DNA of 64,000 bases from a virus. Where the stretch lies: the IMG/VR virus record IMGVR_UViG_3300045988_128133; one strand, written 5' to 3'. The position numbers and the translations under genes are program-made. Position 1 is the first letter of the stretch. Each line of letters opens with the position of its first letter. Of the stretch, positions 18,375 through 63,902 are shown one piece after another. Below the pieces are notes generated by a model. It did no database searches and was not told where the DNA came from. It saw nothing but the letters and a program-made list of their open reading frames with translations.

Positions 18375-18402
18375 TTGACAAAAGTAAAAATCCCTGTATG
18401 TT
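18375..18402 (+). promoter_or_regulatory. sigma70-like promoter TTGACA-N16-TATGTT
   Basis: Preceded by TTTTGTCATAC at 18351-18361, the same element found in the minus-strand early cassettes. Confidence 0.5.
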
Positions 18403-18409
18403 GATGCAC

Positions 18410-18730
18410 ATGGATAACAACCCATCCACAAAAAACATCGTAGTAGTTCAAGACATGACTAATGGTCTTAGCCATGTCATTGAAAGTGAAACCAACGGGG
18501 GAGAAGATGTGAAGAAGTACGTTTCTGTCGTGTCCCCCACGGCTCCCCGTCCAGTACCTCTGTCCCAAATGACCTGGGAGGAAGCGGAGATTGATGCTTT
18601 CTGTATCGTTCGGCTCCTCGACCCATCACTGTCCCCTGAACGGGAACCTTCGGAGTCGGAATCACAAATTAAGAAAGAAGTGGAATTGACCATTAAATGT
18701 GCTAAGAAACGATTGAACAAACAAAACTAA
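18410..18730 (+). CDS. hypothetical protein (possibly leaderless start)
   Basis: The ORF-track start at 18398 overlaps the -10 element. ATG 18410 lies about 8 nt after the -10. Confidence 0.35.
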   Translation: MDNNPSTKNIVVVQDMTNGLSHVIESETNGGEDVKKYVSVVSPTAPRPVPLSQMTWEEAEIDAFCIVRLLDPSLSPEREPSESESQIKKEVELTIKCAKKRLNKQN

Positions 18731-40700: not shown

Positions 40701-43700
40701 GCTAACGCGGAATACGCGCAAGCCACACGCCATACGGGTATTAAGGCAGACGGTACGGTCGTTGAATCCGGCATCGTTTGGAAGAAGCGTGATGCCGCCC
40801 TGCTGGAAGCCCGAAGGAAGAAGCAGGCTGAATTCATGGCTCGTCGTGAAGCTGGTGAAAAATACCTGAAGGAGCAAGGCGTAATCGGAAACCTCATCTA
40901 CAATGCAGTTGTCGATGCCCGCAAGGAAATCGCAGTAACGCAAATGGCTATCGCCCGCATCACGGGTGACAGCAAGATGGAAGACAATGCCAAGCGCATG
41001 GACTACCTGCATCGCACCTATCTGGCTGTGGGTAAGCACGCTGGGGACTACACGAAGACGATGCGGGAAATCATCGCCAATCCTAACGGTGAAACCGCAC
41101 AAGCCTTTAAGGGGCTTACCGTTCTGTTGAATGAAGCCGCGACGGCTCATGCCGAAACCCATCAGAGGGAGATGGCCGAAACCGTAAGCACCGTGCTGGA
41201 CAATATGCAGGCACTTGCAACCCTGCATGATGAACTGAACCTTGAGGTAGTGCCCGCAGGGGACACGGCTAACGAGAACAACGCACTCCTGTTCAATGGT
41301 GTTGCCAAGAACTTCAGAAGTCGCAATATTCTTGACTTCATCCATGACAACTATGGGGAAATTCAGTTGGCTTCTGACCTCAAGAACGGAATGAATATGT
41401 CCAGCATCTACGATAAGGCCATGTCCATGATTGTGCAGAGCGACAGGTACACGGCCAAACGTCTGGACAAAGTGAAGCGCAGGCTTCGCACGGAAGCCCA
41501 GGATAAATACATTGAATCCCTCCTACAAGGTGTGCCGGGCGATACGCTTCTGGACAAGCTGGGTTCCTTCAATTCAGGAGATGCTTTGGCCCACAGGATA
41601 AATGAAATCCTCCCCATGGTTCCGGTCAATGCCATCAACCAAATCTGGAATACCCCGCACCTGGATATTGAAGAGAAGCTGAACGACGTGGTGGACCTTC
41701 TCCGTAAGCAGGCAGAGATTCAGATGAACCTCAATGGTCTGGGCAATGTCATTAACGCTCAGGACATTAAGACGTTGGAATACCCCCAGCTCGCGGAACT
41801 GGCCATGGCTCATGCCAAGGAAGCCATTGACGAAGTACTGTCCAAGAAACGCACCCGTGAAGACGTAACGTCTATGCGGAAACGTGAACCGGAATGGAAG
41901 CGCAAGGCCATGCACGAACTCCACGATACTACCATTGGTGAAGCCATTGGCGTATTGCAGAACACTGTTTCCCTCCAGTCTAAACTGGCAGTGAATCAGG
42001 TGCTGTCTGATGAATATGCAACAGTGCTTAAGGACCAGGGGGTTGTAGTCGCGGAGGACAGTGCGGACCGTACCCCCGACATGGTGGAAGTCATGTTGAA
42101 GAATAAGCGTAATTCCCTGAACGGACTCTACACTACGCCGGATGTGGCTCGTGCCATTTACAAAATCTACATGCCCTCCGACGAAATCATGGACTCCAAG
42201 ACCAGCACGTATGAGGATGTCCGCAAGTACTGGAAGAGCCACACAGGAAGACCTGGCTTCCTCTCAAAGACGGGCGGCTACATCAACATGGCCACTCTTA
42301 TCGCCAGCCCAGGTTCCACCTTCCGTAACGCCTATGGTACTGCGGCTCAGATGCTTCATGCTGGTGCGTTCCCTGTGAAGGGGCTTAAGGACATTGGTTC
42401 CCTCGTGAAAGAATGGGGCCAGATGCACAAGCTCTACCTTAAAGCACAGGAAGGAGGCATTGGTGCGGAGTCTTCTGCTCAGAAGCTCCTACAGGCTGAG
42501 TCTAAATACAATGAGAAGATTCGCTACTGGCAGGAGATTGGTCTTCTTGATGCGGGGCAGGGTGAATTCCTTCGGAATATTTGGAAGTCCGAAGAGTTCG
42601 CGACAATGCAGGGAGAACTGGAATCCACGGATTCCGAGGATTCCTTCTATGCCTTTGCCGAAGCGTTAGAGGATAAGAGGTCCAAGACCACCATCAAAGA
42701 TGTGGCCAAGAAGGCAGGACATGGTGTTGCATACCCCGTGAAATTGGCCGCCTTTGCTTACGGGATGCCGGATGCCGCGGCTAAGATTGCGTTGTTCGGT
42801 AATCAGCAGGCACTCAGCCGCAAGCAGTTGGAGGTCCAGCTGGAACGGGCGACCATGAGAGCGGCCGCTGGGGAAGAACTCAATGCAAGGCAGAAGGCCC
42901 TTGTCCGCGCGGCAGGTAATGGTGAAGTGGCATGGAATGCGTATGTCGATAGGCATGCGGCTTCCAAGGTGAAAACCCTGCTTCCGACAGGTACGCGCAC
43001 CCCGAAGTGGGTGAAGTACATGGGGCAGTATGTTGCGCCCTACTTCATGTTCCAGTACCATACCTTCCAGTCCGCTATGTATAACGTGGGCTACGGCATG
43101 GAAGAAATTAGCGATGGTGTATGGGCTATGAAGAACGGCATGAGTAAGGACGGTGCCTACCTCGTAACCCGCGGGCTTGGCCGATTCATGGGTTCCGCGG
43201 CGGCTCTGACTGCCATGCCCATGCTTTCCCGCTGGGCTCTCATCACAGCGTTGCATACTCTTTATGGTGATGATGAGGACAAGATGCAATTCATTACGAA
43301 TGAGGGGGCACTCCGTAAGATGGCAGAGGCTGGACTCTTCCCGGAATATGACAAGTACGGTGACTTACTCGCCGTAGTGGACAAGGAAAGGAACGAGTTT
43401 ACCTACTTTAATCTTGACTATGTGAACCCCTACAAGAACGTGGTCAAGAGCTTTGGTACACTCTACAGACTAGCAGTCAAGTATGACGAAGACAAGTGGT
43501 CCAGCAATCCTATGGGTGAACTTCACAACCTGTTGGAAGGCACTGTGTTATCTCCGTCCATGGGGCTCGCTACCTTGTTTGAAGTGTTAGATGCTGAAGG
43601 ATTCCATTATCAGTATGCGACTACGGGCAATGAGAACGTGGACTTCATACCTGCGGTCGTCAATGCTCTAACCCTCACGGCGGGCTTCGAACCGTCCATG

Positions 43701-44387
43701 AGTGGCGGCCATACCTGGGAATGGGCTGAACGTCTGGCAACTACAGCGAATAGCAAACTCCCGGTCTATAGTTGGGGTGTCAAGTCTATCCGTTCTCTGG
43801 GTGGAGATACCCCCGACCTTAGCTGGGGAGCATTCGCCGCGCAGACGATTGGTACGGGGATGCGTAGGCCGAAGGACCTGACGGAAACCTTCGCTCAAGG
43901 GTTGAAGAATTCCCAAGCTTCGCTCAACCGAGCCAAGCGTATGACGATTCTCAAGCCGAACTACTATAAGCGAATGGAGTCCGGGGCTGACGTGGATGCC
44001 GTGGTTGCCGAGGAATCCGAGGCTATCATTAAGAGCTATACCAACGTGGTGAACGGGGTGCGCTTCGTCTATGGACTGAGCCGAACCTTGCCAGAGAATA
44101 TGAGGGATGCTGTCCTTGCCTCCGCTATTGAACGTTCCGGCATGAGTGCCAACAGGTTCAAGGCGGCCATGAGTGGCATCCTCCCTGAACTGATTAGCAA
44201 GGAGTCTGCCAAGGAAGCCATTGCTCGTCTCCAACTGGAAGATAAAAAGGCAAGCACGACGGAACGTGGTCATGAACTGATTCAGAAACAGATTGACCTC
44301 ATCCTCCAGCAGGCTGGAAGCGGTTCCGTGGATGTCAATGACAGAGCCTTGAGCCAGAAGGAAATTGATGGTTCTCTTCGACAGTAG
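34788..44387 (+). CDS. giant (3199 aa) multidomain virion/injection protein; tape-measure-like hydrophobic Gly-rich segments plus HExxH zincin motif
   Basis: N-terminal coiled coils, Gly-rich hydrophobic segments, and HEAIH at nt 39246-39260. Sits at the end of the tail block. Confidence 0.55.
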   Translation: MAIDFTTASPADWNPSSEITGIREARAAEKHAAWQRGQEQKALDRQKKEAEEAQKQAVKGVEAEADFFTHLSGVLDTERKEQEKRAKEQKTEARKEVTEARADIQFEQGQADRARAERDRDVKSLSRRNMGLNFEALEDMTDYVGRSADSFVDLKEGAKANPQVMEKLGNSLGLNVVSSNSLTPTDPAFTSRFGFSVGADGQPVITEKFLAIAADRNRSSKDVSTAIARTLAAERKSYIKANTTVAPDSAAKAEAEAPETMEAEEIKAIIDSIRREDVNTFNAARKVYDKYNTASTESIQGKAAKPREASVGELGVGESFDTAPSFTGNVFAELANLSKSPSTMFRLVRDYGKYVADTASTVAADARAAEAGKRAVTAAKTIDNLVKQMEDEYEGINSVALRDALMNEAKVAEAAVKRLAPMVDLDEMRAMADKKSHELGRTIESDYRRDYADTLYAELEKRNPGLSRDLIRTLGTTELLDKHTVGLKKRGSLDDAVAGAMSQYRSAAGQVADVLTFQPKASVGKTSDPLSAMEWRQGARGWEYGVVGGPTFEVSTEQLRDYMKNYGIKSTKDALNSLSHAARQGDLNLGRGTLFAYNPHTKEVDTNATLQYNPNALYDDDLFNRSVNQLQESGANPELIERTIEQWKKARTKSASEMVKQNMELEETLGALRDTWMGTGAGFAGGWVMDRLDKMLSFKEFYNSGKENGQSDEQILAAWQKEGQGAINSILRGLQIGAHKFADIGTGAVAGSLLFASNLIGSDTGREKARTMWNTLNEKQQAEGELVKGNLMADMSAEIVNLGYQMVATHVGGTVGSVAGRALERTAVNGLIKASAKVIARKTEALVPAARPGLASGISGGVQRVLNQAAAIDLQRVGAGAGVNTVIASQIVPQAYSEIFYAVYDREMDGKEHTAENLEAAQAKANRRAMMGAGIAGGMSVLINNRMGMESFIRKAVGAKNLRRENWFNRVDDRLSNWRRKNWKDMTNVEKVKAVSSYLYSCAKVSAEGATEELADEFQEWAVTELAKNGEISEQSIGTFEGVVEVGAKVAFLGALGGVYGARIAGETPAQFQLPAIEPTESKVFRDASQLVDSTGKALESVDPTGPAAPLLETGMRTIEIAGDRGDVELVATEWVNKTITDEALQLTDEQRKQWISRAPALGMTNFQSFRGYVQEASDRYQYEGESAAAEYLAGVIRDLPNTMAYANDTNVSVMRSMLTEAFDAMKSREANVPLDDHLDLQGTGDESLDEASVVINTLTNEPTETTEAVAPTETTETAAREEANKIVAPVQNFLDNGTGREAAEETVNTLAAGTATFDPNTGAWLASGSLEQRAEKLVVLNSMTSPTGPVVTTNTGESIVMTPNASMYAPSANAKAEEAPTTKWGNAVMSLDLPTDGTGVNGINLLNRLSVNATPAQKKAIEGLTQALNAAGLDLAVRMSTATDGNFSPAMITYNQGADGELAGGVIDLFTNRENAVEGTTGTLIHEAIHLLDRHLRKNNAEYGREMSKLRSAMAARFNDIHAVLREAYDNSLDPNEMNAIAAVMNDLAYGIKGADEFASVVFSNPVINSLVMGFTGKNADMDMLTRYAETTGKRKPIHNRIIDWLRDLFHEVRNEMQNAPVLDEAEWNAYVQRVADVAPEGAWYSLDRPETYAVNVTDYTGNKLGKSYFNPMAYESGLSQRMSFGVAAEIVGSSSGNWATMFRNGWRMTRWGQGGINVPTPEQRLVLQEQMVNLSASYERVNKRLGKVKELADKYVQKNNLTTDARQKLASAIIDTAGNLDNDIDPETVERINRETNAEIAQLKETRDYRINAAKQHVQRVVNQNAELIRAANLMANTSEGRASINEMIRLLNEVGREGYASTVNAETMAPAMNQRLTESMDSLGSRVRDLGNAALASRYYALARDTKSYILDQVNGVESPFTLDELQEGWDNLRSDYLRDELSKNVETANMLRDIKEAKAQAREWIKEANAEYAQATRHTGIKADGTVVESGIVWKKRDAALLEARRKKQAEFMARREAGEKYLKEQGVIGNLIYNAVVDARKEIAVTQMAIARITGDSKMEDNAKRMDYLHRTYLAVGKHAGDYTKTMREIIANPNGETAQAFKGLTVLLNEAATAHAETHQREMAETVSTVLDNMQALATLHDELNLEVVPAGDTANENNALLFNGVAKNFRSRNILDFIHDNYGEIQLASDLKNGMNMSSIYDKAMSMIVQSDRYTAKRLDKVKRRLRTEAQDKYIESLLQGVPGDTLLDKLGSFNSGDALAHRINEILPMVPVNAINQIWNTPHLDIEEKLNDVVDLLRKQAEIQMNLNGLGNVINAQDIKTLEYPQLAELAMAHAKEAIDEVLSKKRTREDVTSMRKREPEWKRKAMHELHDTTIGEAIGVLQNTVSLQSKLAVNQVLSDEYATVLKDQGVVVAEDSADRTPDMVEVMLKNKRNSLNGLYTTPDVARAIYKIYMPSDEIMDSKTSTYEDVRKYWKSHTGRPGFLSKTGGYINMATLIASPGSTFRNAYGTAAQMLHAGAFPVKGLKDIGSLVKEWGQMHKLYLKAQEGGIGAESSAQKLLQAESKYNEKIRYWQEIGLLDAGQGEFLRNIWKSEEFATMQGELESTDSEDSFYAFAEALEDKRSKTTIKDVAKKAGHGVAYPVKLAAFAYGMPDAAAKIALFGNQQALSRKQLEVQLERATMRAAAGEELNARQKALVRAAGNGEVAWNAYVDRHAASKVKTLLPTGTRTPKWVKYMGQYVAPYFMFQYHTFQSAMYNVGYGMEEISDGVWAMKNGMSKDGAYLVTRGLGRFMGSAAALTAMPMLSRWALITALHTLYGDDEDKMQFITNEGALRKMAEAGLFPEYDKYGDLLAVVDKERNEFTYFNLDYVNPYKNVVKSFGTLYRLAVKYDEDKWSSNPMGELHNLLEGTVLSPSMGLATLFEVLDAEGFHYQYATTGNENVDFIPAVVNALTLTAGFEPSMSGGHTWEWAERLATTANSKLPVYSWGVKSIRSLGGDTPDLSWGAFAAQTIGTGMRRPKDLTETFAQGLKNSQASLNRAKRMTILKPNYYKRMESGADVDAVVAEESEAIIKSYTNVVNGVRFVYGLSRTLPENMRDAVLASAIERSGMSANRFKAAMSGILPELISKESAKEAIARLQLEDKKASTTERGHELIQKQIDLILQQAGSGSVDVNDRALSQKEIDGSLRQ

Positions 44388-51903: not shown

Positions 51904-51937
51904 AGAACTTATTAGTAGCGTTATATGAGGGTTCTAG

Positions 51938-52504: not shown

Positions 52505-52541
52505 TATCTTATTGATTAGTAGGGTTATATGAGGGTTCTAG

Positions 52542-52889: not shown

Positions 52890-52912
52890 AGCGTTCTATG
52901 AGGGTTCTAGAA

Positions 52913-53521
52913 TTAACGGAAAACTACCTTAATTTCAGTCACATCTGAATCACCCTTCTTCTCAACCACCGTGCTAAACTTCACCATGCAGGGGAGGAAC
53001 ATCTTTTCGGCCATGCGGCGAGCCTTAATAGAGTTCAGCTTCTGAGCCTGTGGTTCGTCGGCGTTCAGTACCCTGAATTTCATGTAGGTCAGGCTTTGGT
53101 CTACCATGAAGTCAACGGCTTGAATCTCATTTGCAATTCTGAATGCCACATCCTGCCAGTTCTGGGTTATCACCTCCATGAAGGTACGTGCCCACTGCAC
53201 GGCATCCTTGAGTGACAGGGAAGCCACTTCCAAAATCGTCAGCACCTGCCCATTCCACTTCATCTTGTGAATACGGGTAATGTACGAAGTAAGGGAAATG
53301 CGTTGCAGTTCAACGGCATAAGGTCTCCGATACGGTTTGATGAATACCGAGCCTTCACCATTCCAAAGTTCCGGCTTCTCAATGCGTACAGACTCTTCAT
53401 CCTTATGTAGGAGCAGGGTGTTAGGCTGAATTTTATTTACATAGGTGGTCAATCTAATCCATTCAGGGCGAGAAAGTTCTTCACGGCTCTTGCATTCAGT
53501 ATTTACGAAAAAGGCTTTCAT
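52913..53521 (-). CDS. hypothetical protein
   Basis: 202 aa. Confidence 0.4.
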   Translation of the reverse strand: MKAFFVNTECKSREELSRPEWIRLTTYVNKIQPNTLLLHKDEESVRIEKPELWNGEGSVFIKPYRRPYAVELQRISLTSYITRIHKMKWNGQVLTILEVASLSLKDAVQWARTFMEVITQNWQDVAFRIANEIQAVDFMVDQSLTYMKFRVLNADEPQAQKLNSIKARRMAEKMFLPCMVKFSTVVEKKGDSDVTEIKVVFR

Positions 53522-53623
53522 GATTTATAGCGTTCTATGAGGTTTCTAGTATTTTGGTTGATGTTAATTTAGGTTAATTATCTTTTTTCTTTTGGATTGT
53601 TAGGGTAGCCTAATTTGTTAGTT

Positions 53624-54735: not shown

Positions 54736-55536
54736 TTAGCGGTTGTACTTAGGAAGGGCGGCGTTGTAGTCCGTGCGCTTGTAGTGATATGTTTTCGGTG
54801 ACGTAATGGACGCAATAAGGGCATCCTGCTTCACCAGTTCACGCTTTACTTTAATTGTAGATTGCACAATCTTTCGCAAGATGCTTTCTTTCTGCATGTT
54901 GTGGAGAGATGTAAGAGCACTTTCCGCCTTAGATTCCAGATATTCCACAGTTGCGTTTAGCTTGTCAATCACGGGTTGCATGTCATCTACGCTAACAATG
55001 CGCCCAGTTTCCGGACTCACTAACACCTTAAAATCCAACGGGAAAGAAATATGTTCCTCCAATCCTAGGCTTCCGTGGAATCGGAGGCAATGCAAATCGT
55101 AATTGCTGAAATCTACATAGCCTTTAATTGTACGGAGAGTCTCTTTTTTCCGGGCATCATCCAAAGAGTCGGAGAAGCAAGCCTTTATGGCATTGTCCAA
55201 CCGGGCGTTGTAGACCTTACCCGCAAAACTGGGAAGCTTAGCAATTAGCCGCCTGATGAAGTCAATGGAGATATTGGCGGCGTAATAATAATTAAAAAGT
55301 TTCACTCGTGTAACATTCAAATCATCCAAAAAGGTACGGATTGATGCACCCAGTTCCCGCCAGTCATCTTTACCGAGGCCTTCCCCCGGTTCACCGTTGA
55401 ACTGGTTCCAGACTTCTTCCCGAACCGTTTTAATAGCGGCATCACTTTTCGTCATGTATGCAATCGTTTCGTTATGTGTGGTATATTTCATTTTCTTATT
55501 CTTTCTATTGGTTTTGTTAATATCCTTAAATATCAA
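54736..55536 (-). CDS. hypothetical protein
   Basis: 266 aa. Confidence 0.4.
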   Translation of the reverse strand: MIFKDINKTNRKNKKMKYTTHNETIAYMTKSDAAIKTVREEVWNQFNGEPGEGLGKDDWRELGASIRTFLDDLNVTRVKLFNYYYAANISIDFIRRLIAKLPSFAGKVYNARLDNAIKACFSDSLDDARKKETLRTIKGYVDFSNYDLHCLRFHGSLGLEEHISFPLDFKVLVSPETGRIVSVDDMQPVIDKLNATVEYLESKAESALTSLHNMQKESILRKIVQSTIKVKRELVKQDALIASITSPKTYHYKRTDYNAALPKYNR

Positions 55537-56084
55537 TCAATTATGCGTAACACCCTTGCTTCTGCGTCATCCGTACTGGGTGCCATATAACGCCCGCAAC
55601 CGTCAAAAGTTTCCGTTGCGGATGCGTCCATGAAATTAGTATGGACGTAATAGCTAAGATAAGGGCGGCCGTGCTTCGCATAATTCCACCCTACGGGAGC
55701 ATATTCATCATTCCAACGCATATCTGCAACACGCTTAAAACCTGCGTTTTTATATATTTTCGATAAATGGGGCGTATCGAGGCACATCAGCCACCCGGCA
55801 CCGTGAGCAACCGCATCACAGACTAGCCCGCTTCCGAGTATGATACTTTTCGGAGACTTAATGAGAGATACTAGCTCAAGATTTTCCGTGATTGCATAAA
55901 CTGCAACCGGGTTTGACGGTGTGCCTATCAAGTGGCAGTGCGCTTTCTTTTGGACATACCAGCTTTCTTCATGCACATCCACCGCGCCGCGCGTTCCTTC
56001 GTCAATCTTATTACGCAATTTATGCGCGGCGGTCAGCCATTCATTAAGGTCTTCGGTTTCGGCGTTGTAGCAATATCTATTCAT
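55533..56084 (-). CDS. possible GNAT-fold acetyltransferase
   Basis: ILGSGLVCDAVAHGAGW...YKNAGFKRV is a weak match to the acetyl-CoA-binding motif A. Confidence 0.3.
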   Translation of the reverse strand: MNRYCYNAETEDLNEWLTAAHKLRNKIDEGTRGAVDVHEESWYVQKKAHCHLIGTPSNPVAVYAITENLELVSLIKSPKSIILGSGLVCDAVAHGAGWLMCLDTPHLSKIYKNAGFKRVADMRWNDEYAPVGWNYAKHGRPYLSYYVHTNFMDASATETFDGCGRYMAPSTDDAEARVLRIID

Positions 56085-56149
56085 AATCTATTGTCTTTCT
56101 ATTGTTCGGTTGTTTTGTTCACCGCCCCTTATTGGCGGCTGATGTGGCT

Positions 56150-56177
56150 ATTTTAGCGGATTTGCGGATGTTGTCAA
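56150..56177 (-). promoter_or_regulatory. early promoter TTGACA-N16-TAAAAT (cassette A)
   Basis: Minus-strand read. TTTTGTCATACA lies at 56192-56203, an AT-rich UP-like tract, and a conserved leader hairpin CCGCC/GGCGG. Confidence 0.55.
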
Positions 56178-56185
56178 ATTATTTT

Positions 56186-56576
56186 TTAGACTGTATGACA
56201 AAACGGAGATTTATTTAGTAGTTTTGCTATCTGTATTTTTGCAATTCTGTGAGAAGGAAACACCCTAGAACATTTTCTTTTATATGTTGATAAGGTGCAA
56301 GGTGTTAGACAATTTGCCCGAACGTAATAAATTGTTGAATCTTCTTCTCCACCGTAAGGACGTACTAAACCTATTTCAATATATCCGGCTGAAATAAGTT
56401 CTTCAATGGGTCTTTTTGTTGCAATAGCCAGCCAGCTATACTTCTCCAACTGTACCGCATCTTTAATAGGTACGGAAGAAGCCTTTTCATCCGATACGGG
56501 AATCAATTCACTATTTACTACCTTATACCGGAACACCAAATCGTCAGCCAAAGGTAAAAATTTTATTCTTTTCATA
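56186..56576 (-). CDS. hypothetical early protein (ATG 56576)
   Basis: TTGTCATACAA at 56590-56602 abuts its start region. Confidence 0.35.
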
Positions 56577-56601
56577 TTATTTTTCAAGGTTGTATGACAA
56601 A

Positions 56602-57150
56602 TTACAAATAATTAACATGAGAGAGATACTTACTCCAATTCAGATTTTCCGGCTCTACTTCCTGCCCTTTCACCTGACGGAAGCGCATAAAGAGCTCCAC
56701 CTTTTTTCCTTTGGTATCATATCCGGGTGCGCTCCACTCTTCCAGATATTCTTCCCCCTCCCCCGCGTGGTGAATACTACCCGGAAAAAATCGGTTGGAA
56801 AGGGTCATTTGACGGGTGGCGCAATAGACGTGCCCTTGATAGACATACCCGCCGAACTGTTTTCGGAGTCCGTGAAAATCAACAGGGCATTGACCTTGCA
56901 CAAAGTAAAAATTATTGTTAACTACCAACCCTAAACGGAGGGAAACTGCACCGAGAGCACGGGCAATCAAACCTTCCAAAGATTTGACGGAATCGGAGGC
57001 GGTCAAATAGACTACCCATGCTTGGCCATGCCTCCAACAAATATGTTCCCGTTGGAGTGCGTTCTTAACACGTTTTTTAGCGTTGCGCCCTTCGGCACCT
57101 TGTGCATTGAGGCAGTCAAATAAAATTACGATTGTTTTTGCAGTTTTCAT
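56602..57150 (-). CDS. hypothetical early protein
   Basis: 182 aa. Confidence 0.35.
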   Translation of the reverse strand: MKTAKTIVILFDCLNAQGAEGRNAKKRVKNALQREHICWRHGQAWVVYLTASDSVKSLEGLIARALGAVSLRLGLVVNNNFYFVQGQCPVDFHGLRKQFGGYVYQGHVYCATRQMTLSNRFFPGSIHHAGEGEEYLEEWSAPGYDTKGKKVELFMRFRQVKGQEVEPENLNWSKYLSHVNYL

Positions 57151-57204
57151 ATTTAGTTTTTCTATTTGGTTTGTTCACCACCCTTGTGGGTGGCTGATGA
57201 AGTT

Positions 57205-57232
57205 AATCTAGCAGATTTTGCTACCTTGTCAA
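57205..57232 (-). promoter_or_regulatory. early promoter TTGACA-N16-TAGATT (cassette B)
   Basis: Leader hairpin is CCACCC-ACAA-GGGTGG. Confidence 0.5.
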
Positions 57233-57266
57233 ATTATTTTTTACTTTGTATGACAAAATGGATAAA

Positions 57267-57587
57267 TTATTGATTGATAATGGCTTGTGCGTAGTCCATA
57301 ATATTGCTTACGTGTACAACCCGGAAGCGTTCCTGTTCCGCAATCAGGGCAATGTCTTTTTGCTGACGGGAAGTTGTCTGGGAGTATTTGCGGGAAGAAA
57401 GATAAAGGATTTTATTTGCTCTATCTACTGCCGCAATTATGGTGGCATATGAGTACAAGAGCGGCCCCTCAAATTTCATTGAGCGAAGGCTTCCATAGTT
57501 GGTGCGGCGCAATGGTGCTTTCCCGCTGGTTGCGGTTCCGTCCAGATACGGGTACATAAGTTTTTCAACGTAGTTTCGGGTATTCAT
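57267..57587 (-). CDS. hypothetical early protein
   Basis: 106 aa. Confidence 0.35.
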   Translation of the reverse strand: MNTRNYVEKLMYPYLDGTATSGKAPLRRTNYGSLRSMKFEGPLLYSYATIIAAVDRANKILYLSSRKYSQTTSRQQKDIALIAEQERFRVVHVSNIMDYAQAIINQ

Positions 57588-57643
57588 ATTCTGTTTTCTT
57601 TCTATTTGATTTGTTTGCCGTCCTATCGGTGGCTGATGAAGCT

Positions 57644-57671
57644 AGTTTATCGGATTTGATGATGTTGTCAA
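57644..57671 (-). promoter_or_regulatory. early promoter TTGACA-N16-TAAACT (cassette C)
   Basis: TTTTGTCATACAA lies at 57699-57711. Confidence 0.5.
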
Positions 57672-57717
57672 CTATTTTATTTAAAATTTTTCATCTTTGT
57701 ATGACAAAAGTTGAAAC

Positions 57718-57951
57718 CTATTTATTTTCAGTGCGTTTCACGTTTGTAAATATTAGGCAGGTTAAGGGGCCGCTGGTAGGGCATATGCCTGATAAAACCC
57801 ATTCACCGGGAAATTTCCGCTTGTCAATTCTTTTTTCTCTTTTTTGCGGTGTATCTGATTTCGGCCCTAGCGTCATCACCCTTTCCGGCGTTCCCCTCAT
57901 TCTGCCTATCCGAAATGTTTCGGTGGTTATCTCGTCCATATTAAGCGGCAT
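57718..57951 (-). CDS. possible small basic protein in 228-nt gap
   Basis: 77-aa ORF that overlaps the upstream stop by 11 nt. Composition is only moderately coding-like. Confidence 0.2.
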   Translation of the reverse strand: MPLNMDEITTETFRIGRMRGTPERVMTLGPKSDTPQKREKRIDKRKFPGEWVLSGICPTSGPLTCLIFTNVKRTENK

Positions 57952-58264
57952 TCATTCCGGCATCTTCCAGCATCAAGCAAAGCGGGTCAGAAATGTGCAC
58001 CCGTGAAACTTTCCAATCGGCTTCATTTCGGCGGTACTCGTCAATCGTCATTTCCCGGTGCGGTACGTTTTTGAGCAGGCCCCGCTTTTTTGCGATAATG
58101 GTAAGAGTTGCACCGCATTTTTCCGCTAGGTTAGTAAGATAGACTAGTTCCGTTGCGGCATTTTTTGATAGTTGCAGGGTATATGGTTCAACCTGCCTCA
58201 CATTAGCGGCTAGATTTTTAATCATCACCCGTTCATAAGGTTTGAGTTCGGCAATGGTATTCAT
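57941..58264 (-). CDS. hypothetical early protein
   Basis: 107 aa. No promoter of its own, so probably co-transcribed with the 58289 gene. Confidence 0.35.
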   Translation of the reverse strand: MNTIAELKPYERVMIKNLAANVRQVEPYTLQLSKNAATELVYLTNLAEKCGATLTIIAKKRGLLKNVPHREMTIDEYRRNEADWKVSRVHISDPLCLMLEDAGMNAA

Positions 58265-58288
58265 GATTGATTGTTAGTAGGTTAAAGA

Positions 58289-58528
58289 TTAGTCAAAAAG
58301 CAGTTCAAAGCCGTCTTCATACTTGCTCAATTCCGCATCCCATGAATCCGCAACTTCTTTGATAAGTGATTCAATGGCTTCCGGGTTTTCGGTAATTACG
58401 TAGATAATGCAAGTGTTGGTGGTGCGGAAACTTTGCCCCGTGATGCGGTTGATATGCTGGTGTATGTTTTGCTGATGCGCCTTTTCCCAGATTTCGCTTG
58501 CAATTATTGCCATAGTTTCTTCTCTCAT
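58289..58528 (-). CDS. small acidic early protein
   Basis: 79 aa, acidic. Confidence 0.35.
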   Translation of the reverse strand: MREETMAIIASEIWEKAHQQNIHQHINRITGQSFRTTNTCIIYVITENPEAIESLIKEVADSWDAELSKYEDGFELLFD

Positions 58529-58607
58529 AATCTATTGTCTTTCTATTTGGTTTGTTCACCGCCCCTTGTGGGTGGCTGATACCGCTATCGCGGCGGGTTA
58601 TGCGGCT

Positions 58608-58635
58608 ATTTTATCGGGTGTTCTAATGTTGTCAA
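58608..58635 (-). promoter_or_regulatory. early promoter TTGACA-N16-TAAAAT (cassette D)
   Basis: Consensus -35 and -10 elements, with TTTTGTCATACAA at 58664-58676. Confidence 0.55.
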
Positions 58636-58690
58636 CTATTTTATTTAAAATTTTTCGAGGTTGTATGACAAAATCGTAAATTGTTGATTA

Positions 58691-59185
58691 TTAGTTAGAT
58701 AGTTTGAAGTGAGGGCGGGCAATACTGGTTGGCAGGTAAATATCATCATGGGTGGCAAAGAGCACACGCCCATTGCGGATGACCGCAAACGCCGTCCACC
58801 CGTCATTGCGGGCAAGTACTGATGTCAGGGCGTTAAGATAGGTTCCTATCGTCCTGCGTCCGTCCGGTTTGTGTGCACCAACGGGCGGCTCGCTTTTATC
58901 GCACCAGAAATAGACGGTGCAGTTATGAAGTGAAGTAGATAATGGGGCCGGAATGATGCCCGTGTATCTATAGCGGCTCTCCACATACCAAGGTGTACAA
59001 GGTGCCGGGCCACCAAAGGCAGGGGAGTTTTCGAACCGGGAGTCTGGGGCGGTAGGGGAGACAAGCAAAAAATGACGGGAAAACTCGTCAGCTTGTGCCC
59101 GTTCTTCGGCGGTCGTATCTCCAAAGTCTCCTGTACGGAGGTAATTGACAAGGCGGGTAGGAATATATGCAATATCTGTGTTCAT
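58691..59185 (-). CDS. hypothetical early protein
   Basis: 164 aa. Confidence 0.35.
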   Translation of the reverse strand: MNTDIAYIPTRLVNYLRTGDFGDTTAEERAQADEFSRHFLLVSPTAPDSRFENSPAFGGPAPCTPWYVESRYRYTGIIPAPLSTSLHNCTVYFWCDKSEPPVGAHKPDGRRTIGTYLNALTSVLARNDGWTAFAVIRNGRVLFATHDDIYLPTSIARPHFKLSN

Positions 59186-59233
59186 ATGTTTATTTTGGTT
59201 GCGGGGGAGGTACCGCCCCCCGGTGATTGATAT

Positions 59234-59575
59234 TTAGTCATTAACGCCGAAGGCCAAACGGGCGGCGGCTCCCATGACGGAGGTATTAAGCTCATGCCGG
59301 GTTGCTACGATATTATTGCCCTGACGGGTGGCCACATCCGTGAAATAGAGATTGCGGGCCTTGCGGGCATCCTTATCATTGCGGATATCATGGCCCAGAT
59401 AGTTTTCCAGTAGGTCTTTATCCTCATTCCAACATGCCGCAACGTCGATATTATCGATGCAGGGCCTAATGGATTCTGTGGGCACCGGGGATGCAAAGAC
59501 TGTCCGGCTTCCGTGGGTTACAAACATGTGTAAGGTTCCGGCGTTATCTTCAATCACAATGTAGTTCATATTCAT
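59234..59575 (-). CDS. hypothetical early protein
   Basis: 113 aa. Confidence 0.35.
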   Translation of the reverse strand: MNMNYIVIEDNAGTLHMFVTHGSRTVFASPVPTESIRPCIDNIDVAACWNEDKDLLENYLGHDIRNDKDARKARNLYFTDVATRQGNNIVATRHELNTSVMGAAARLAFGVND

Positions 59576-59637
59576 AATATATTGTCTTTTTCTATTTTGG
59601 TTTGTTATTCACCGCCTTATTGGCGGTTGATGCGGCT

Positions 59638-59665
59638 ATTTTATCGGGTATGATGACGTTGTCAA
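59638..59665 (-). promoter_or_regulatory. early promoter TTGACA-N16-TAAAAT (cassette E)
   Basis: Leader hairpin is ACCGCC-AATAA-GGCGGT. Confidence 0.55.
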
Positions 59666-59731
59666 CTATTTTTTTTTTAAAATTTTTTCAGCTTGTATGA
59701 CAAAAGTTGCAATGCCCTCACTACGTGTGAC

Positions 59732-60313
59732 TTATCGCACGGGAAAAACTTCGCATCCTACCACAACCACCCGGCAATATTCCCGGCCGTCATTCTTGGC
59801 TTCCCGGATTGTGGTGACTAGCCGGGTTAAATCGTCCGGGTTTTTGAGGGTGAGGGCAAGAGCCGAGCAAGTGACGGTACCAAGTTCCATTGCTTCAAAA
59901 TTGGATTTAATGGCGGCGAGTACCCGGGTGCGGGTCTCTTTGTTTTTGATAAGACTAGCCATGACGATTACTTTTTTCCCGGCATACTTTGCAGACAGTT
60001 CGGCGGGCGTGGGGGAAATGGCACTAAAGGCATGGCGGCCCGCATTCCTCATATTTTCCCACAAGGGGCGGCGGCAATAAACTAGTTCTGTCCCCGGCGT
60101 TGCGGCCGTTGCAGTCCACCACTTGCGGGCATCGATGATATCTACGGGCATTTTCCAGCTCTTCACCTCATGCAAATTGTTGAGCATGTGTGGCAAGTAT
60201 TCAGCCGATACCGGGCCAGCAAATCTGATATCACCTAGATTATCAACCACAACTAAACGGAGTTCACCCGTCTTTGTTTCGTACACTAGCACATGGAGTT
60301 CTTTCTTATTCAT
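59732..60313 (-). CDS. hypothetical early protein
   Basis: 193 aa. Its N-terminus is duplicated in the adjacent pseudogene. Confidence 0.4.
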   Translation of the reverse strand: MNKKELHVLVYETKTGELRLVVVDNLGDIRFAGPVSAEYLPHMLNNLHEVKSWKMPVDIIDARKWWTATAATPGTELVYCRRPLWENMRNAGRHAFSAISPTPAELSAKYAGKKVIVMASLIKNKETRTRVLAAIKSNFEAMELGTVTCSALALTLKNPDDLTRLVTTIREAKNDGREYCRVVVVGCEVFPVR

Positions 60314-60326
60314 ATCTTATATCTTT

Positions 60327-60522
60327 CTATCGTTTGGTTTGATTTGTTTTGTGGTAGTTATTAAGCGTTTTCGGTATCGTTCAAATTACGTAGGAGGGTG
60401 AGCAAGGATTCTGTGGGTACAATAGGGGCGATTGCCTGATTCCCCTTATCGTCCATGACTATCATACGGAGTTCACCCGTCCGGGTTTCGTAAATATGTG
60501 CGGTCACTTTGGCCATGTTCAT
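60327..60522 (-). pseudogene. frameshifted partial duplicate of the 5' end of gene 59732..60313
   Basis: MNMAKVTAHIYETR, then a +1 shift, then TGELRMIVMDDKGNQAIAPIVPTESLLTLLRNLND aligns with HVLVYETKTGELRLVVVDNLGD...LNNLHE. DNA shares the 15-mer ACGGGTGAACTCCGT, and the shift comes from a 1-nt insertion. Confidence 0.45.
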
Positions 60523-60572
60523 ATTCTATTGTTTTTCTATCGTTTAGCCGCCAATGAGGGTGACGGTTACAA

Positions 60573-60602
60573 GTATTATTTAGTATTTTCGGAGGTTGTC
60601 AA
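60573..60602 (-). promoter_or_regulatory. early promoter TTGACA-N18-TAATAC (cassette F, variant leader)
   Basis: Leader shares the 33-nt block ggttacaagtattatttagtattttcggaggtt with the 61017 region. Confidence 0.35.
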
Positions 60603-60626
60603 TAAGTTTTTTCGGAGTATGACAAA

Positions 60627-61019
60627 TTAAAGCAAACGGTCATCGATGACGCTAACCCATTGATTATTTGCCGCATCATAGCGGGGTGCAACAAAGAGAG
60701 CGGAATCAACCCCTAGCGGCATCCATGCAATGCGCTCATGCATGGGCAGATTGTTGAGGAGACTCGCCGGGGGTGTGCCGTCAGGGGAAATGAGCATCAC
60801 GCCATTTTCGGAGGCCCGTACAACAGTCACACCCGGATAATTCCGGGAAACGTTCGGCCATGCGTACCGGGTCATGAGGTCTAAAATCAGCAAGGCATCT
60901 TTAGCAGTCATGCCCGTATACCAACGTACCCGGTCATCTACCGTTGACCACATAATAAGAGTAGATTCTTGCAGTTCGTAGCTTATATGCAGGTTTTCAA
61001 TAATTCCTTTCAGCTTCAT
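60627..61019 (-). CDS. hypothetical early protein
   Basis: 130 aa. Its upstream cassette lacks TTGACA, so it is probably co-transcribed with the 61093 gene. Confidence 0.35.
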   Translation of the reverse strand: MKLKGIIENLHISYELQESTLIMWSTVDDRVRWYTGMTAKDALLILDLMTRYAWPNVSRNYPGVTVVRASENGVMLISPDGTPPASLLNNLPMHERIAWMPLGVDSALFVAPRYDAANNQWVSVIDDRLL

Positions 61020-61092
61020 AAGTTATTGTCTTTCTATTGTTTGGCCTTCCTTTCGGCGGTGGTTACAAGTATTATTTAGTATTTTCGGAGGT

Positions 61093-61323
61093 TTAGGCAC
61101 GGAGCCGGACTTTCCAATCTTCAACGGTGGCGGGCAAGCCGAAAGCCGGGAAGCGGGTGAAGTAGTGCTCTTCACCGCAACGAGCCACAAGGTAATAGTC
61201 AGCTTTAAACCCATTGGCAAGCGCAATGTCCTCAAGGGTTAGGCCGTCCGTATCTCCGTATTCCAAATAACAAAGGGCCCATTCAGGAATTGCGGCGATT
61301 TCGTATTCTTCCAGTTCGTTCAT
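61093..61323 (-). CDS. small acidic early protein
   Basis: 76 aa. First gene of the array. Confidence 0.35.
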   Translation of the reverse strand: MNELEEYEIAAIPEWALCYLEYGDTDGLTLEDIALANGFKADYYLVARCGEEHYFTRFPAFGLPATVEDWKVRLRA

Positions 61324-61379
61324 ATCTATTATCTTTCTATTGTTTGGTTTAACCTCCCTTGTGGGCGGTTGATGTGCTC

Positions 61380-61407
61380 ATTTTACAAGAGAGTAGGGTA
61401 CTGTCAA
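61380..61407 (-). promoter_or_regulatory. early promoter TTGACA-N16-TAAAAT (cassette G)
   Basis: Here the TTTTGTCATACA element (61476-61487) is in inverted orientation. Confidence 0.5.
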
Positions 61408-61529
61408 TAGATTTATTTGATAATTGTTGATACTCATTGGCGAAAGCGGTGTAACTCGTTGAACCTGTGGCAATTATGATTTTGTCATACATCTCCGCTT
61501 CGCTATGATGCGGGCCGTACATCTCCGCT

Positions 61530-61742
61530 CCCACGGTTCCCACGGTTCCCACGGTTCCCACGGTTCCCACGGTCGCCATATGTGCGTGCGCGCGTGTGCG
61601 TGCATATGTATATAGTGGTTGCCGTGGGTTCCGTGGAGTCCGTGGAGTGTATGGGTAGCATGGGAACCGTGGAGTGTATGGGTAGCATGGGAACCGTGGA
61701 GTCAATGGGAACCGTGGAGTCAATGGGAACCGTGGGTTCCGG
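61530..61742. repeat. large imperfect inverted-repeat cluster of CCACGG-type units (candidate ori/pac/partition site)
   Basis: 5x tandem CCCACGGTT (61530-61574), then an alternating Pu/Py tract (61577-61614), then inverted units GGAACCGTGGAGT: 2x a 27-bp unit plus 2x an 18-bp unit (61621-61742). Confidence 0.85.
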
Positions 61743-61810
61743 CCGCGCCTCATGTATGGTAACTCCCTGATGCTAAGTCTGTTACATTTCTTATACAACT
61801 GTATAACTTT

Positions 61811-61845
61811 TAGTTTAGGTTTCTTAATAGTTTAGGTTTCTTAAT
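61811..61845. repeat. direct repeat AGTTTAGGTTTCTTAAT x2; nearby AAAATTTATAC x3 (61847, 61879, 61971)
   Basis: Seen directly in the sequence. Confidence 0.7.
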
Positions 61846-62321
61846 TAAAAATTTATACCGTTCGCATACCTTCACATAAAATTTTATACGAAGTGCATGC
61901 GAAGGGTGCAAATTAGAGCACGGAAATCACGGAAACAGTGTAAAATAGTCCAATATCAGACCATCCCACATAAAAATTTATACGCCTGTATAGGAAATGT
62001 GCCAACCTTTTACAATTTTGTAAAATGAAGCATGCTTCGGATAATTTAAGACCTTCATCCTCAACGTATTCCCCTTATTCTGACAGGATTAGTAGGATTA
62101 AAAAGATGAGGCCAGTTCTCAAATAACATTCCTACCAATTAGGCATTATATGTATTATGCGAAGTATGGAACTGTAACCCATTGATTCTATGGTACTTAT
62201 AGCAAACAGGGTGCCAATAGGAAACAGGGGAGAGTGGAAGCATGCACCAATTGCGTGAAGGGGCAGGCTACCCTATACCTTATTGAGTATCTGACGGTTA
62301 GGGGAAGCGGAAGCCGGAAAG

Positions 62322-62364
62322 CCACGGATTCCACGGATGCCGGGAGGCCACGGATGCCGGGAGG
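62322..62364. repeat. tandem CCACGGATGCCGGGAGG x2 preceded by CCACGGATT
   Basis: gccacggattccacggatgccgggaggccacggatgccgggagg. Confidence 0.8.
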
Positions 62365-62612
62365 CCCTAATATGTTAGGCGCAACTAACTTTTGGAAAAA
62401 ATTGGCGGCATGGGGAAATTTTTTCGGCCAAAAAAGTCCAAATACCACCACGGTTTCCGGGGCTTCGGGGCAACACATGCGCTATTGTAAAAGATTGACA
62501 CAAATTTTTCGGCAGGGGTGCGGGGGTAGGGGTACCCTTCTGGGCAGACAGGGGAGAGGCTTGTCAAGAGAAATCGACGCGCGGCTGGGCTTCATTTTCA
62601 TCTATTTTATGC

Positions 62613-62640
62613 TTGACAGAAAAAAGATTTCTGCTATAAA
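62613..62640 (+). promoter_or_regulatory. sigma70-like promoter TTGACA-N16-TATAAA in non-coding region
   Basis: gcttgacagaaaaaagatttctgctataaa. Confidence 0.45.
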
Positions 62641-62646
62641 AGCCTC

Positions 62647-62827
62647 CGGTTCTCGAAGAGGTCTGCAAGGGCTCACTCCCCAACTGTAGACCCACTCTTT
62701 ACTCAGGTAGCCGCAACAGATAATGTCGAGTAAAACTGTTGGCCGGGCAGACCTGGTTTCGAGTTCGAGAACCCAACTTCCATTGGATTCCCCGGAGGTC
62801 GCGGCAACGGCTTCCGGGGTTTTTGTT
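62647..62827 (+). ncRNA. candidate ~180-nt non-coding transcript (promoter-to-terminator unit)
   Basis: Bounded by the 62613 promoter and the 62790 terminator. No convincing ORF inside. Confidence 0.3.
62790..62827 (+). terminator. rho-independent terminator
   Basis: CCCCGGAGG...CTTCCGGGG hairpin followed by TTTTTGTT. Confidence 0.5.
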
Positions 62828-63860
62828 GTCAAGAGAAATCGACGCGCGGCGAGGGTTCCAAGAGGCATATTAAATCCTACTAGTTTGGTAGGGATTAAGA
62901 GGGACCAGATTAGAGTTACTGAAACCCCATGGAGCAGTCCATGTCAAGCAAAATCGACATGCGGCCATTACCATGCACAGGGCACTGTCAGATAAACAGC
63001 AACATCTACAGCGTCGCAACATGAAAGAACCCCTCCGAAGTACCGTGAAGGCGATACCTGGAGGGGCTGAAAGATACGACTAAACCAGTAGAAAGGAAGG
63101 CCCGTGCGGAGAACCTTAGCCAGGGAAGGGTTTCTGAACTCGCGTCGCGTAGCGGTGTCAGCCGTTGTCTCCGTGGGGACCGGGGGCAATTTATCACGGG
63201 GAGGAAACCCTGTCAAGCAAAAACGGTTTACGTGGGAGCAATGGCTTCCGAGGGTACCGGGGGTACATGTCAAGCAAAAACGACGCGCGGCGGGTACCCA
63301 GGCCCACAGTAGGGAGTTCCATCATACAGGAGGTAGCTCTTGCTCTTATAGCTTCCACCCAAGGTTGCCCATTCCTGACATGTTACCCCACCACTCCACG
63401 CGCTTGCACAGTGTGTTGGCTATCGTTAACCACTGAAGGAGGTCAAGGCCGTTTTAGCCGGGGGTAACTTTGTTCTACCTTATTAGGCCTACTTACAATG
63501 TTACCCATACCTAAAAGAGAGGTTTGAGAGCGGGATGGACAATCACAAGGGGGAGGGTAGGTAAGCTCGTGGAAGGTAGGGGTAACATGACAAGAATGGG
63601 ACTGTGCGTAGCCACCCGTGATGCAGGTGTTCATGCGTAGGTACGCGCGGGGGTGAGCAGGAGGGGGAAAGAGGAGGAACCCGCTTGACAGAGGCTGTGA
63701 CTGGCCTAGAACAGTGGAACAACGTAACTTTGGTAGTGGGTTAACTCCCTTATCATCAAGAAGTTACTACAGAGTGGAACAGAGTGGAACAAGATGAGAA
63801 TGTGACAAATTTTCACTGACTATCAACGAGTTGCAGGGTTAGGAACAACGAACAGCTTTA

Positions 63861-63902
63861 CGCGCGCGGTGTATATGTGTGTATGTGTGTATGTGCGTAT
63901 AT
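63861..63902. repeat. alternating purine-pyrimidine (GT/GC) Z-DNA-prone tract
   Basis: cgcgcgcggtgtatatgtgtgtatgtgtgtatgtgcgtatat. Resembles the tract at 61577-61614. Confidence 0.7.

Follow-up and report, generated by a model that had tools for sequence, protein, structure and literature searches.

The DNA analyzed here (IMG/VR virus record IMGVR_UViG_3300045988_128133; 64,000 nucleotides (nt), hereafter the window) comprises most of one genome, that of an uncultured gut phage of approximately 70 kb. Its plus-strand genes (1-45.7 kb) include those for the large terminase (3750-5585), a PD-(D/E)XK exonuclease, a Holliday-junction resolvase and an open reading frame (ORF) of 3199 amino acids (aa), and its minus-strand genes (45.8-61.4 kb) include those for a nucleotide kinase, ThyX and an NAD-dependent ligase. 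The present work concerns the minus strand at 55.5-61.5 kb, where seven full copies of a regulatory cassette follow one another at intervals of 0.4-1 kb, each heading a putative transcription unit of one to three small genes. An earlier note on this DNA had described a repeated modular cassette upstream of these genes, and its existence is confirmed: the order of parts in a full copy is a boundary element (TTTTGTCATACAA), an A-tract, a promoter of the form TTGACA-N16-(-10), a GC hairpin and an A-rich leader ending in ..AAACCAAATAGAAAGACAATAGATT-ATG. Five partial copies accompany them, at 61019 (no -35), 60313 and 55491 (leader only), 59185 (hairpin and short leader) and 56575 (boundary element only).

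The counts of the cassette motifs lie far above those expected from shuffled sequence. With at most one mismatch, TTTGTCATAC was found 16 times (3.7 expected) and AATAGAAAGA 11 times (3.7 expected), nine of the latter on the minus strand between 55500 and 61341. The pattern TTGACA-N15-18-TAnAmT occurred 8 times as compared to 0.25 expected, with five matches inside the region, to which a relaxed promoter scan added 57232 (TAGATT) and 60602 (AATAAT). The 5.3 kb of the region therefore hold seven promoters, whereas the other 58 kb have three pattern matches. All seven have a 16-nt spacer and carry TAAAAT, TAAACT, TAGATT or AATAAT as the -10 hexamer; moreover, A-tracts 10-25 nt long lie upstream of the -35 hexamer in all full copies, and the boundary element lies 0-35 nt 3' of the stop codon of the preceding gene.

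An alignment of ten upstream regions with MAFFT gave a clear modular register, and the cassette coordinates listed earlier were correct, although the copy at 61017-61090 is only partial (a -10 remnant, a weak hairpin and a leader, with no -35). Other details of that description had to be adjusted. The 11-13-nt element assigned to each copy is in place at the other cassettes, but at the first one it is inverted and lies approximately 75 nt upstream of the -35 hexamer. Similarly, the leader of about 60 nt is indeed conserved, but its length ranges from 49 to 76 nt and its 5' part is the GC hairpin, which had gone unmentioned. Among the genes considered to lack a cassette, 57941 has nothing, but 59732 is preceded by a leader-only copy, and 58691 by a GC hairpin with a short A-rich leader. 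The gene at 56186-56575 has a boundary element only and no promoter, and the start of gene 54736 is 55491 rather than 55536, with a leader-only copy in front of it. Nevertheless, the general picture of small-gene units behind duplicated regulatory cassettes holds, the units being mono- to tricistronic and mostly without assignable function. The hairpin, the absence of Shine-Dalgarno sequences and the role of the cassettes as recombination junctions are additions to that account. The features are collected in Table 1.

Table 1. Elements of the cassette array and the genes they precede (positions in the window).
Feature	Position	Strand	Remarks
Inverted boundary element (TTTGTCATAC on + strand)	61481-61490	+	Between 9-mer arrays and promoter 1; same place in distant relatives L306 and L307
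Promoter 1, TTGACA-N16-TAAAAT	61380-61407	-	-35 starts 61407
Leader hairpin 1, AACCGCCC-ACAA-GGGAGGTT	61351-61370	-	-9.3 kcal/mol, z = -3.3
A-rich leader (61324-61349) and 76-aa gene	61093-61349	-	Acidic, isoelectric point 4.3; Pfam DUF6926, E = 4e-16
Partial cassette (-10 remnant, weak hairpin, leader; no -35) and 130-aa gene	60627-61090	-	
Boundary element TTTGTCATAC	60617-60626	-	Left junction of the 1.95-kb block missing in L286
Promoter 2, TTGACA-N16-AATAAT	60575-60602	-	-35 starts 60602
Leader hairpin 2, CCGUCA...UGGCGG	60548-60566	-	-7.1 kcal/mol, z = -1.2 (weak)
53-aa gene, leader-only copy (60314-60340) and 193-aa gene	59732-60522	-	Both paralogues
Boundary element TTTTGTCATACAA	59693-59705	-	
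Promoter 3, TTGACA-N16-TAAAAT	59638-59665	-	Long A/T tract upstream; -35 starts 59665
Leader hairpin 3, UCAACCGCC-AAUAA-GGCGGUGA	59609-59630	-	-11.4 kcal/mol, z = -4.6
113-aa gene, GC hairpin (about 59203-59221) with short A-rich leader, and 164-aa gene	58691-59575	-	
Boundary element	58661-58673	-	Right junction of the 1.95-kb block missing in L286
Promoter 4, TTGACA-N16-TAAAAT	58608-58635	-	-35 starts 58635
Two tandem leader hairpins	58563-58594	-	Second with A/C mismatch, as if a chimera of two stem types
Three-gene unit (79, 107, 77 aa)	57718-58528	-	
Boundary element	57697-57709	-	
Promoter 5, TTGACA-N16-TAAACT (57644-57671), and weak hairpin (57617-57633)	57617-57671	-	-35 starts 57671
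106-aa gene	57267-57587	-	Only PHROG families of unknown function match
Boundary element	57246-57258	-	
Promoter 6, TTGACA-N16-TAGATT	57205-57232	-	-35 starts 57232
Hairpin of promoter 6	57175-57197	-	-13.3 kcal/mol, z = -3.8
182-aa gene	56602-57150	-	
Boundary element (56592-56601) and promoterless 129-aa gene	56186-56601	-	3' end of gene runs into next boundary element
Boundary element	56193-56202	-	
Promoter 7, TTGACA-N16-TAAAAT	56150-56177	-	-35 starts 56177
Hairpin of promoter 7	56119-56142	-	-11 kcal/mol, z = -3.0
183-aa gene	55533-56084	-	Predicted GNAT-fold acyl-CoA N-acyltransferase
Leader-only copy (AACAAAACCAATAGAAAGAATAAGAAA-ATG) and 251-aa gene	54736-55518	-	First gene conserved in all 31 related contigs

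IMG/VR holds about 40 related contigs of approximately 70 kb, the closest of which (3300045988_115270; 71,674 bp) has a terminase 100% identical to that of the window and an early region 92-94% identical. Pattern scans of viral contigs with the short cassette motifs were drowned in chance matches; the early regions of 31 relatives were fetched with the first conserved gene, encoding the 251-aa protein, as an anchor. The same architecture is found in these 31 metagenomic phage contigs, with the elements in the same order and on the coding strand only, even though the anchor protein of the distant clade is only 23-28% identical to that of the window. Cultured phages gave no match to the DNA of the region (megablast) or to a 759-aa ORF (tblastn), and only partial matches to the large terminase, at 26-31% identity; moreover, the ligase is less than 30% identical to anything, and among the scanned structural ORFs the terminase had the sole PHROG match, with no close cultured relative. 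Judged by its sequence, the phage is unrelated to T4-like phages. No tRNA was found in the window, and no Rfam family reached gathering score anywhere in it, the only match at 61.3-64 kb being a spurious miRNA match on inverted 9-mer arrays. The Shine-Dalgarno motif is absent in 42 of the 46 plus-strand genes, whose upstream regions are A/C-rich, and since genes of this phage lack Shine-Dalgarno sequences, its host is probably a member of the Bacteroidota.

Within the cassettes, CATCA directly follows the -10 hexamer, and the GC-rich hairpin comes next. The distance from the -10 to the start of the main helix is 11-12 nt in nearly all of 57 unique leaders, and 27 distinct stems can be told apart among them (e.g., CCGCC/GGCGG, GCCACC/GGTGGC, GCGGGAG/CTCCCGC, CGGGGGG/CCCCCCG and CCCCGCCC/GGGCGGGG), so that the position is kept while the stem sequence varies. 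The variants include swaps of G-first and C-first arms, inverted loops (ACAAG versus CTTGT) and G-runs of 5-8; loops of the main stems measure 3-9 nt, mostly 4-7. The mean folding energy is -11.3 kcal/mol and the mean z-score -3.5. As MAFFT matched G-first stems with the 3' arms of C-first stems, folding was carried out sequence by sequence and combined with arm-swap chimeras: hairpins with their own 3' arm averaged -13.1 kcal/mol, as compared to -6.8 kcal/mol with the 3' arm of another cassette. RNAalifold, applied to twelve hairpins (most of them from the window clade), returned six pairs, two of them with compensatory changes. The hairpin is conserved and covaries. Some copies look chimeric, combining a CCACC 5' arm with a GGCGG 3' arm and leaving an A/C mismatch. 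When folded from the predicted start, taken as the A of ATCA, 7 nt after the -10, the leaders of the window pair from +2 to +5 and their A-rich remainder is wholly unpaired. The sequence directly 3' of the hairpins is A/C-rich, and no U-run follows any hairpin. As a separate observation, otherwise identical cassettes of different genomes (L301, L306, L307 and L308; e.g., L301:6813 and L308:5120) differ in the G-run that spans the 5' arm and loop of one hairpin and counts 5 to 8 G; this looks like slipped-strand length variation.

The leader, ..AAACCAAAcAATAGAAAGAcAATAGAtt-ATG, is found only before genes of the early region and is nearly unchanged in the distant clade. The cassettes have no Shine-Dalgarno sequence: there is no GGAG-like motif, and the conserved A-rich leader is found instead. 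The leader also stands, without a promoter, in front of internal cistrons, which argues that it is a translation-initiation module in its own right. Upstream of it, both promoter hexamers (-35 and -10) have been kept across clades despite the drift in hairpin sequence, and they plausibly form near-consensus sigma-70-type promoters. A comparable promoter form is available from phi14:2, a crAss-like phage of Cellulophaga (Bacteroidota) with relatives among gut crAss-like phages: its middle promoters resemble the -35/-10 consensus and are transcribed by the host polymerase and by the E. coli sigma-70 holoenzyme, P070 being AAAAAAACTTGACT-N17-TATATT (bioRxiv 10.1101/2020.03.07.982082). Like phi14:2, the present phage probably has a host that does not use Shine-Dalgarno sequences, and the promoter form shared by the two is A-tract, TTGAC, N17 and TAtAnT. 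However, the phi14:2 promoters drive middle and late genes, a virion polymerase serving the early genes, which show no common motif, and neither a hairpin nor a conserved leader nor a shuffling role is described for them. The housekeeping promoter class of Bacteroides was also considered and rejected, TTTG-N17-21-TAnnTTTG having 0 matches and TAnnTTTG alone 27, as compared to 33 expected.

The gene content and order of the region differ among relatives, as the earlier note anticipated in likening it to hypervariable phage early regions, and two indels between close genomes can be traced to the cassettes. The 129-aa gene (56186-56575), which sits between two boundary elements, is absent from the closest relatives, whose flanking DNA is 98% identical. 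Its GC content is 0.36, and 0.26 at third codon positions, versus about 0.5 in its neighbors, and an 85%-identical copy is found elsewhere in a low-GC relative, with its own boundary element 3'; the low GC and the copy at a different position in a low-GC relative indicate that the gene was imported. In the second indel, L286 lacks 58672-60617 (1.95 kb, four genes, two units). Its junction, ...TTTGTCATAC, has the left flank of one cassette and the right flank of the other, which places the crossover within about 10 nt of identity. Across five close genomes, 61 distinct homology-block ends were located, and 52% of them fall in motif zones making up 10.6% of the sequence: the boundary element holds 18% of the ends in 3% of the sequence, the -35 box 8% in 2% and the leader 26% in 5.6%, as compared to 23% in ORF interiors, which take up 73% of the sequence. 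In 32 genomes, the early ORFs form 42 families, 21 of them singletons, with order and copy number varying; family 1 units, for example, range from zero to three copies per genome. Relatives have lost, duplicated, relocated and imported genes, and the junctions of these changes lie at the boundary element, the -35 box and the leader. As the same cassette blocks are repeated and homology breaks there, regulation and gene shuffling appear to be carried by one and the same cassette, a proposal also made for the PeSL elements of T4-like phages (see below). The phage encodes recombination genes, namely the PD-(D/E)XK exonuclease, the Holliday-junction resolvase and the ligase.

Regarding the boundary element itself, TTTGTCATAC has seven exact minus-strand copies between 56193 and 60626 and the one inverted copy at 61481-61490. 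In 824 kb of late-region sequence of relatives TTTTGTCATACAA hardly occurs, and in two clades it is found inverted next to repeat arrays, upstream of the first promoter. An intrinsic terminator was rejected as its identity, no hairpin preceding the early-region copies, and so was a -35 or Bacteroides -7 box, the flanking bases not being conserved. Two further observations concern this element. The only late-region copy of TTTTGTCATAC in the window (18322-18400, plus strand; copy at 18350) lies directly 3' of a strong GC hairpin, with TTGACA 15 nt past it, just before gene 18398-18730; hairpin and TTTTGTCATAC together look like a terminator. In the distant clade (e.g., L288:7668 and L309:7548), many promoters carry another conserved upstream block, GTTACACCGCCCTAAAAAAGTAT, in place of TTTTGTCATACAA, which suggests that the upstream module of the cassette is exchangeable.

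The earlier note had recognized no protein family in the array. Nevertheless, the 76-aa protein (61093-61323) belongs to Pfam DUF6926 (E = 4e-16), on which no literature was found, and the 164-aa protein has a weakly DUF6926-like N-terminus. The products of 57267-57587 and 55533-56084 match PHROGs, although only families of unknown function, and those of 60361-60522, 59732-60313 and 59234-59575 (53, 193 and 113 aa) are paralogues (family 8) sharing an N-terminal domain. The 183-aa protein (55533-56084) has about 500 remote homologues, a few of which match Pfam GNAT models; its AlphaFold2 (AF2) model reached a pLDDT of 93 and a pTM of 0.89, and the 50 best-listed matches of this model in the PDB were all GNAT-superfamily acyltransferases or acyl-amide synthases, with E-values from 5e-6. 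It is therefore predicted to be a GNAT-fold acyltransferase. By comparison, the AF2 model of the 129-aa cargo protein had a pLDDT of 43, and word-indexed homologue searches with early proteins gave shallow families. No anti-defence family was matched among the early proteins in Pfam or PHROGs, and an anti-defence or host-takeover role for these genes is a guess.

The closest known counterparts of the cassettes are the PeSL (promoter-early stem-loop) elements of T4-like phages. In these, a sigma-70-like early promoter, whose hexamers are spaced by about 17 nt, is combined with a G/C stem-loop and with an AT-rich tract that lies upstream of the -35, beside the stop codon of the preceding gene; the element ends at the next start codon (PMC2839356, PMC4122927). 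PeSLs are repeats of approximately 100 bp, located before ORFans in hyperplastic regions and at indel junctions (Arbiol et al. 2010, PMC2839356; Comeau et al. 2014, PMC4122927). Their stem-loops are polyG/polyC-rich and can sit just downstream of the -10, and one was a strong terminator in a lacZ assay (PMC2839356, PMC4122927). The array described here shares with them repeated cassettes that combine a near-consensus sigma-70 promoter with an AT-rich tract and with a GC stem-loop containing G/C runs, and that end at the next start codon; the location in a hyperplastic region, upstream of ORFans, with only the GNAT fold assignable; and the indels and replacements between close relatives with junctions at cassettes. 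In contrast, the phage is an unrelated one, not a T4-like myovirus. Where a PeSL has a Shine-Dalgarno sequence at its 3' end, the present cassette has the conserved A-rich leader, which also travels alone, and whereas the PeSL stem-loop varies in position and has demonstrated terminator activity, the hairpin here is fixed at the predicted 5' end of the transcript and has no U-run. The 11-13-nt boundary element, to which crossovers map, is an extra part. Furthermore, PeSLs have been described with excised mini-circles that carry one chimeric cassette and with promoter and terminator activity. The cassette would thus work like a PeSL without being a member of the T4 family of elements, and embodies no new principle. 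We found no report of such cassettes outside T4-like phages, including gut or Bacteroidota phages.

Overall, it is likely that the region is a hyperplastic, probably immediate-early one, in which PeSL-like promoter-hairpin-leader cassettes drive and shuffle genes. Host RNA polymerase with the primary sigma factor would start at the strong promoter formed by the A-tract and TTGACA-N16-TAAAAT, and the transcript would begin 1-5 nt before the GC hairpin. This 5' stem-loop may plausibly shield the mRNA from 5'-end-dependent decay and insulate the leader from upstream sequence, a stabilizing role that we infer from its position; the unpaired, conserved A-rich leader would serve as a translation-initiation region working without a Shine-Dalgarno sequence. 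TTTTGTCATACAA would delimit the cassette on its upstream side and indicate where the preceding unit has its 3' end. Several points weigh against this interpretation. The early timing, the start sites and the polymerase reading the promoters are all deduced, and if the host were Bacteroides, the cassette promoters would not be of its housekeeping type; as to the host, a terminase profile run against one genome per GTDB species revealed no relative. Two hairpins of the window are weak, and in the covariance-model alignment built from the MAFFT seed an inconsistent hairpin register lies behind the pair count. The distance from the boundary element to the -35 is either 12-14 nt or 27 nt, and these two spacings, approximately 1.5 helical turns apart, argue against a helix-face-specific activator site at TTTTGTCATACAA. 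Moreover, the enrichment of block ends is no proof of a dedicated recombination function, as part of it is expected from block ends falling at repeat edges and from selection removing in-gene breaks.

The hairpin might instead act mainly as a terminator or attenuator of upstream read-through, making the cassette a composite terminator-promoter, as in PeSLs, whose stem-loops can likewise lie just downstream of the -10 and include one strong terminator. The GC-rich stems with variable G-runs would suit this role, as would the lack of canonical terminators between units in a terminator scan. Nevertheless, A/C-rich sequence rather than a U-run follows the hairpins, which moreover lie downstream of the predicted start, hence in the transcript of their own unit too, and the promoterless genes 59732 and 56186 need read-through; we consider this function, which is compatible with the interpretation favored above, somewhat unlikely as the main one. 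It is far less probable that the cassettes are read by a polymerase which the phage delivers along with its DNA, the 3199-aa ORF (34788-44387), among plus-strand late genes, being a candidate, and that the hairpin is part of promoter recognition as in phage N4. Hairpins at a fixed position beside conserved sequence and the absence of the host-type TAnnTTTG motif could be read in this way. However, N4 promoter hairpins have a 5-7-bp stem and a 3-nt loop, lie just upstream of the start site and come with no -35/-10, while the hairpins here lie downstream of the -10 and have loops of mostly 4-7 nt. A sigma-70-family holoenzyme recognizes just such hexamers, fixed 16-nt spacing and A-tract, and these are conserved across clades, in contrast to the hairpin sequence. 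As to the 3199-aa ORF on the plus strand, sequence searches gave no PDB or PHROG match and no DFDxD-type polymerase motif, which makes a virion polymerase unlikely; the ORF may encode a giant virion or ejection protein of unknown kind.

The conserved short motifs admit other readings too. The boundary element, the leader or both could be operators through which a phage regulator shuts the early units off together, either as a repressor at the DNA element or as a RegA-like translational repressor on the leader. The leader motif ATAGAAAGA does occur only before early-region genes and not before late genes, it is kept across clades whose proteins fell to 24% identity, and TTGTCATACAA has a weak dyad, TTGT-N3-ACAA; but no candidate regulator was found, and translation efficiency or concerted evolution via recombination among copies would explain the conservation equally well, leaving this an unlikely explanation. 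We regard as very unlikely that TTTTGTCATACAA is a dedicated recombination or gene-capture site, similar to an integron attC or a homing target, that moves promoterless genes. Such a site would account for two independent indels with junctions at or within TTTTGTCATACAA, for the foreign low-GC gene flanked by two copies, for units of gene and element that come and go in the distant clade, for the near confinement of TTTTGTCATACAA to the early region and for the inverted copy kept beside repeat arrays in two clades. However, the scanned proteins of the window include no integrase or recombinase (7.6 kb of the genome lie beyond it, outside the scan), the element is only 11-13 nt long with no attC-like structure, and it is contiguous with the promoter module in six of the seven window copies; junctions also fall at the -35 and the leader, as ordinary short-homology recombination between repeats would give. 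A broader proposal, in which TTTTGTCATACAA is a boundary signal for gene capture (a protein-bound terminator or insulator, or a recombination site) and the leader a second, translational shut-off point, strikes us as rather improbable.

Other phage and bacterial arrays resemble this one in part. The host-takeover module of SPO1 and the early regions of T5 and T7 consist of small unknown genes near a genome end, in short operons with strong host-type promoters. The present array is similarly a cluster of small genes in which each short operon has its own strong host-type promoter; to our knowledge, none of those arrays is built from one duplicated promoter-hairpin-leader unit used at junctions, and they rely on Shine-Dalgarno sequences. 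Integrons have a tyrosine recombinase, IntI, and structured attC sites of 57-141 nt. As in integrons, the array gains and loses genes that have no promoter of their own and are flanked by a short repeated element; in contrast, there is no integrase among the scanned proteins here, no attC-like site and no single common promoter, and junctions occur elsewhere too.

Some observations outside the array are also worth recording. A motif, CTAGAACCCTCATATAAC(G/C)CTACTAAT, was found 4 times on the minus strand (51920-51937, 52524-52541, 52893-52910 and 53532-53549; 0.03 expected), and three of the four copies lie just upstream of called minus-strand gene starts (51757, 52504 and 53521). The copy at 52893-52910 follows closely on the stop codon of gene 52913-53521, and no ORF reaching 120 aa is called beyond it. 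This motif looks like a non-sigma-70 promoter class, possibly a middle one. At the other side of the array, 61800-63900 comprises approximately 2 kb with no convincing ORF, a G-rich plus strand and 4-5 copies of GTCAAGCAAAAACGACGCGCGGCGGG; it is conserved at 97% in a close relative and 83% in another, and a conserved minus-strand promoter, TTGACA-N17-(TG)ATAAATT (63188-63216), is directed into it. This stretch may give a long non-coding early transcript. Strong transcription of long intergenic regions is also reported for phi14:2 (bioRxiv 10.1101/2020.03.07.982082). Lastly, CCRYGG-N3-CCRYGG doublets with a 9-bp spacing were found 31 times across the window (e.g., 11198, 18065, 22386, 26438 and 38575), as compared to 0.07 expected; those in genes lie in one reading frame in 20 of 22 cases and encode Thr/Val/Glu-rich tripeptide repeats. 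CCRYGG arrays at 61529-61573 and, inverted, at 61617-61735 are non-coding and stand beside the first promoter, a place where relatives have arrays of other 8-9-mers and where many of their contigs break. They could be iterons, protein-binding sites or terminal repeats.

Taken together, these results extend the mechanism of mobile regulatory cassettes, so far one of T4-like phages, to an unrelated and abundant clade of gut phages, and suggest that such cassettes are a general way to keep fast-evolving accessory genes expressible. Should TTTTGTCATACAA indeed prove to be a boundary signal for gene capture, the clade would be plugging promoterless genes from relatives of different GC content into ready expression units, as an analogue of integrons. 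If the host is one of the Bacteroidota, the cassette would offer a compact natural set of parts, i.e., a strong promoter, a 5' hairpin and a Shine-Dalgarno-free leader, and organisms in which Shine-Dalgarno sequences play no part are ones for which strong, portable expression parts are of use. Moreover, the array flags about 20 shuffled gene families, including the predicted GNAT acyltransferase, as candidates for host takeover or counter-defence.

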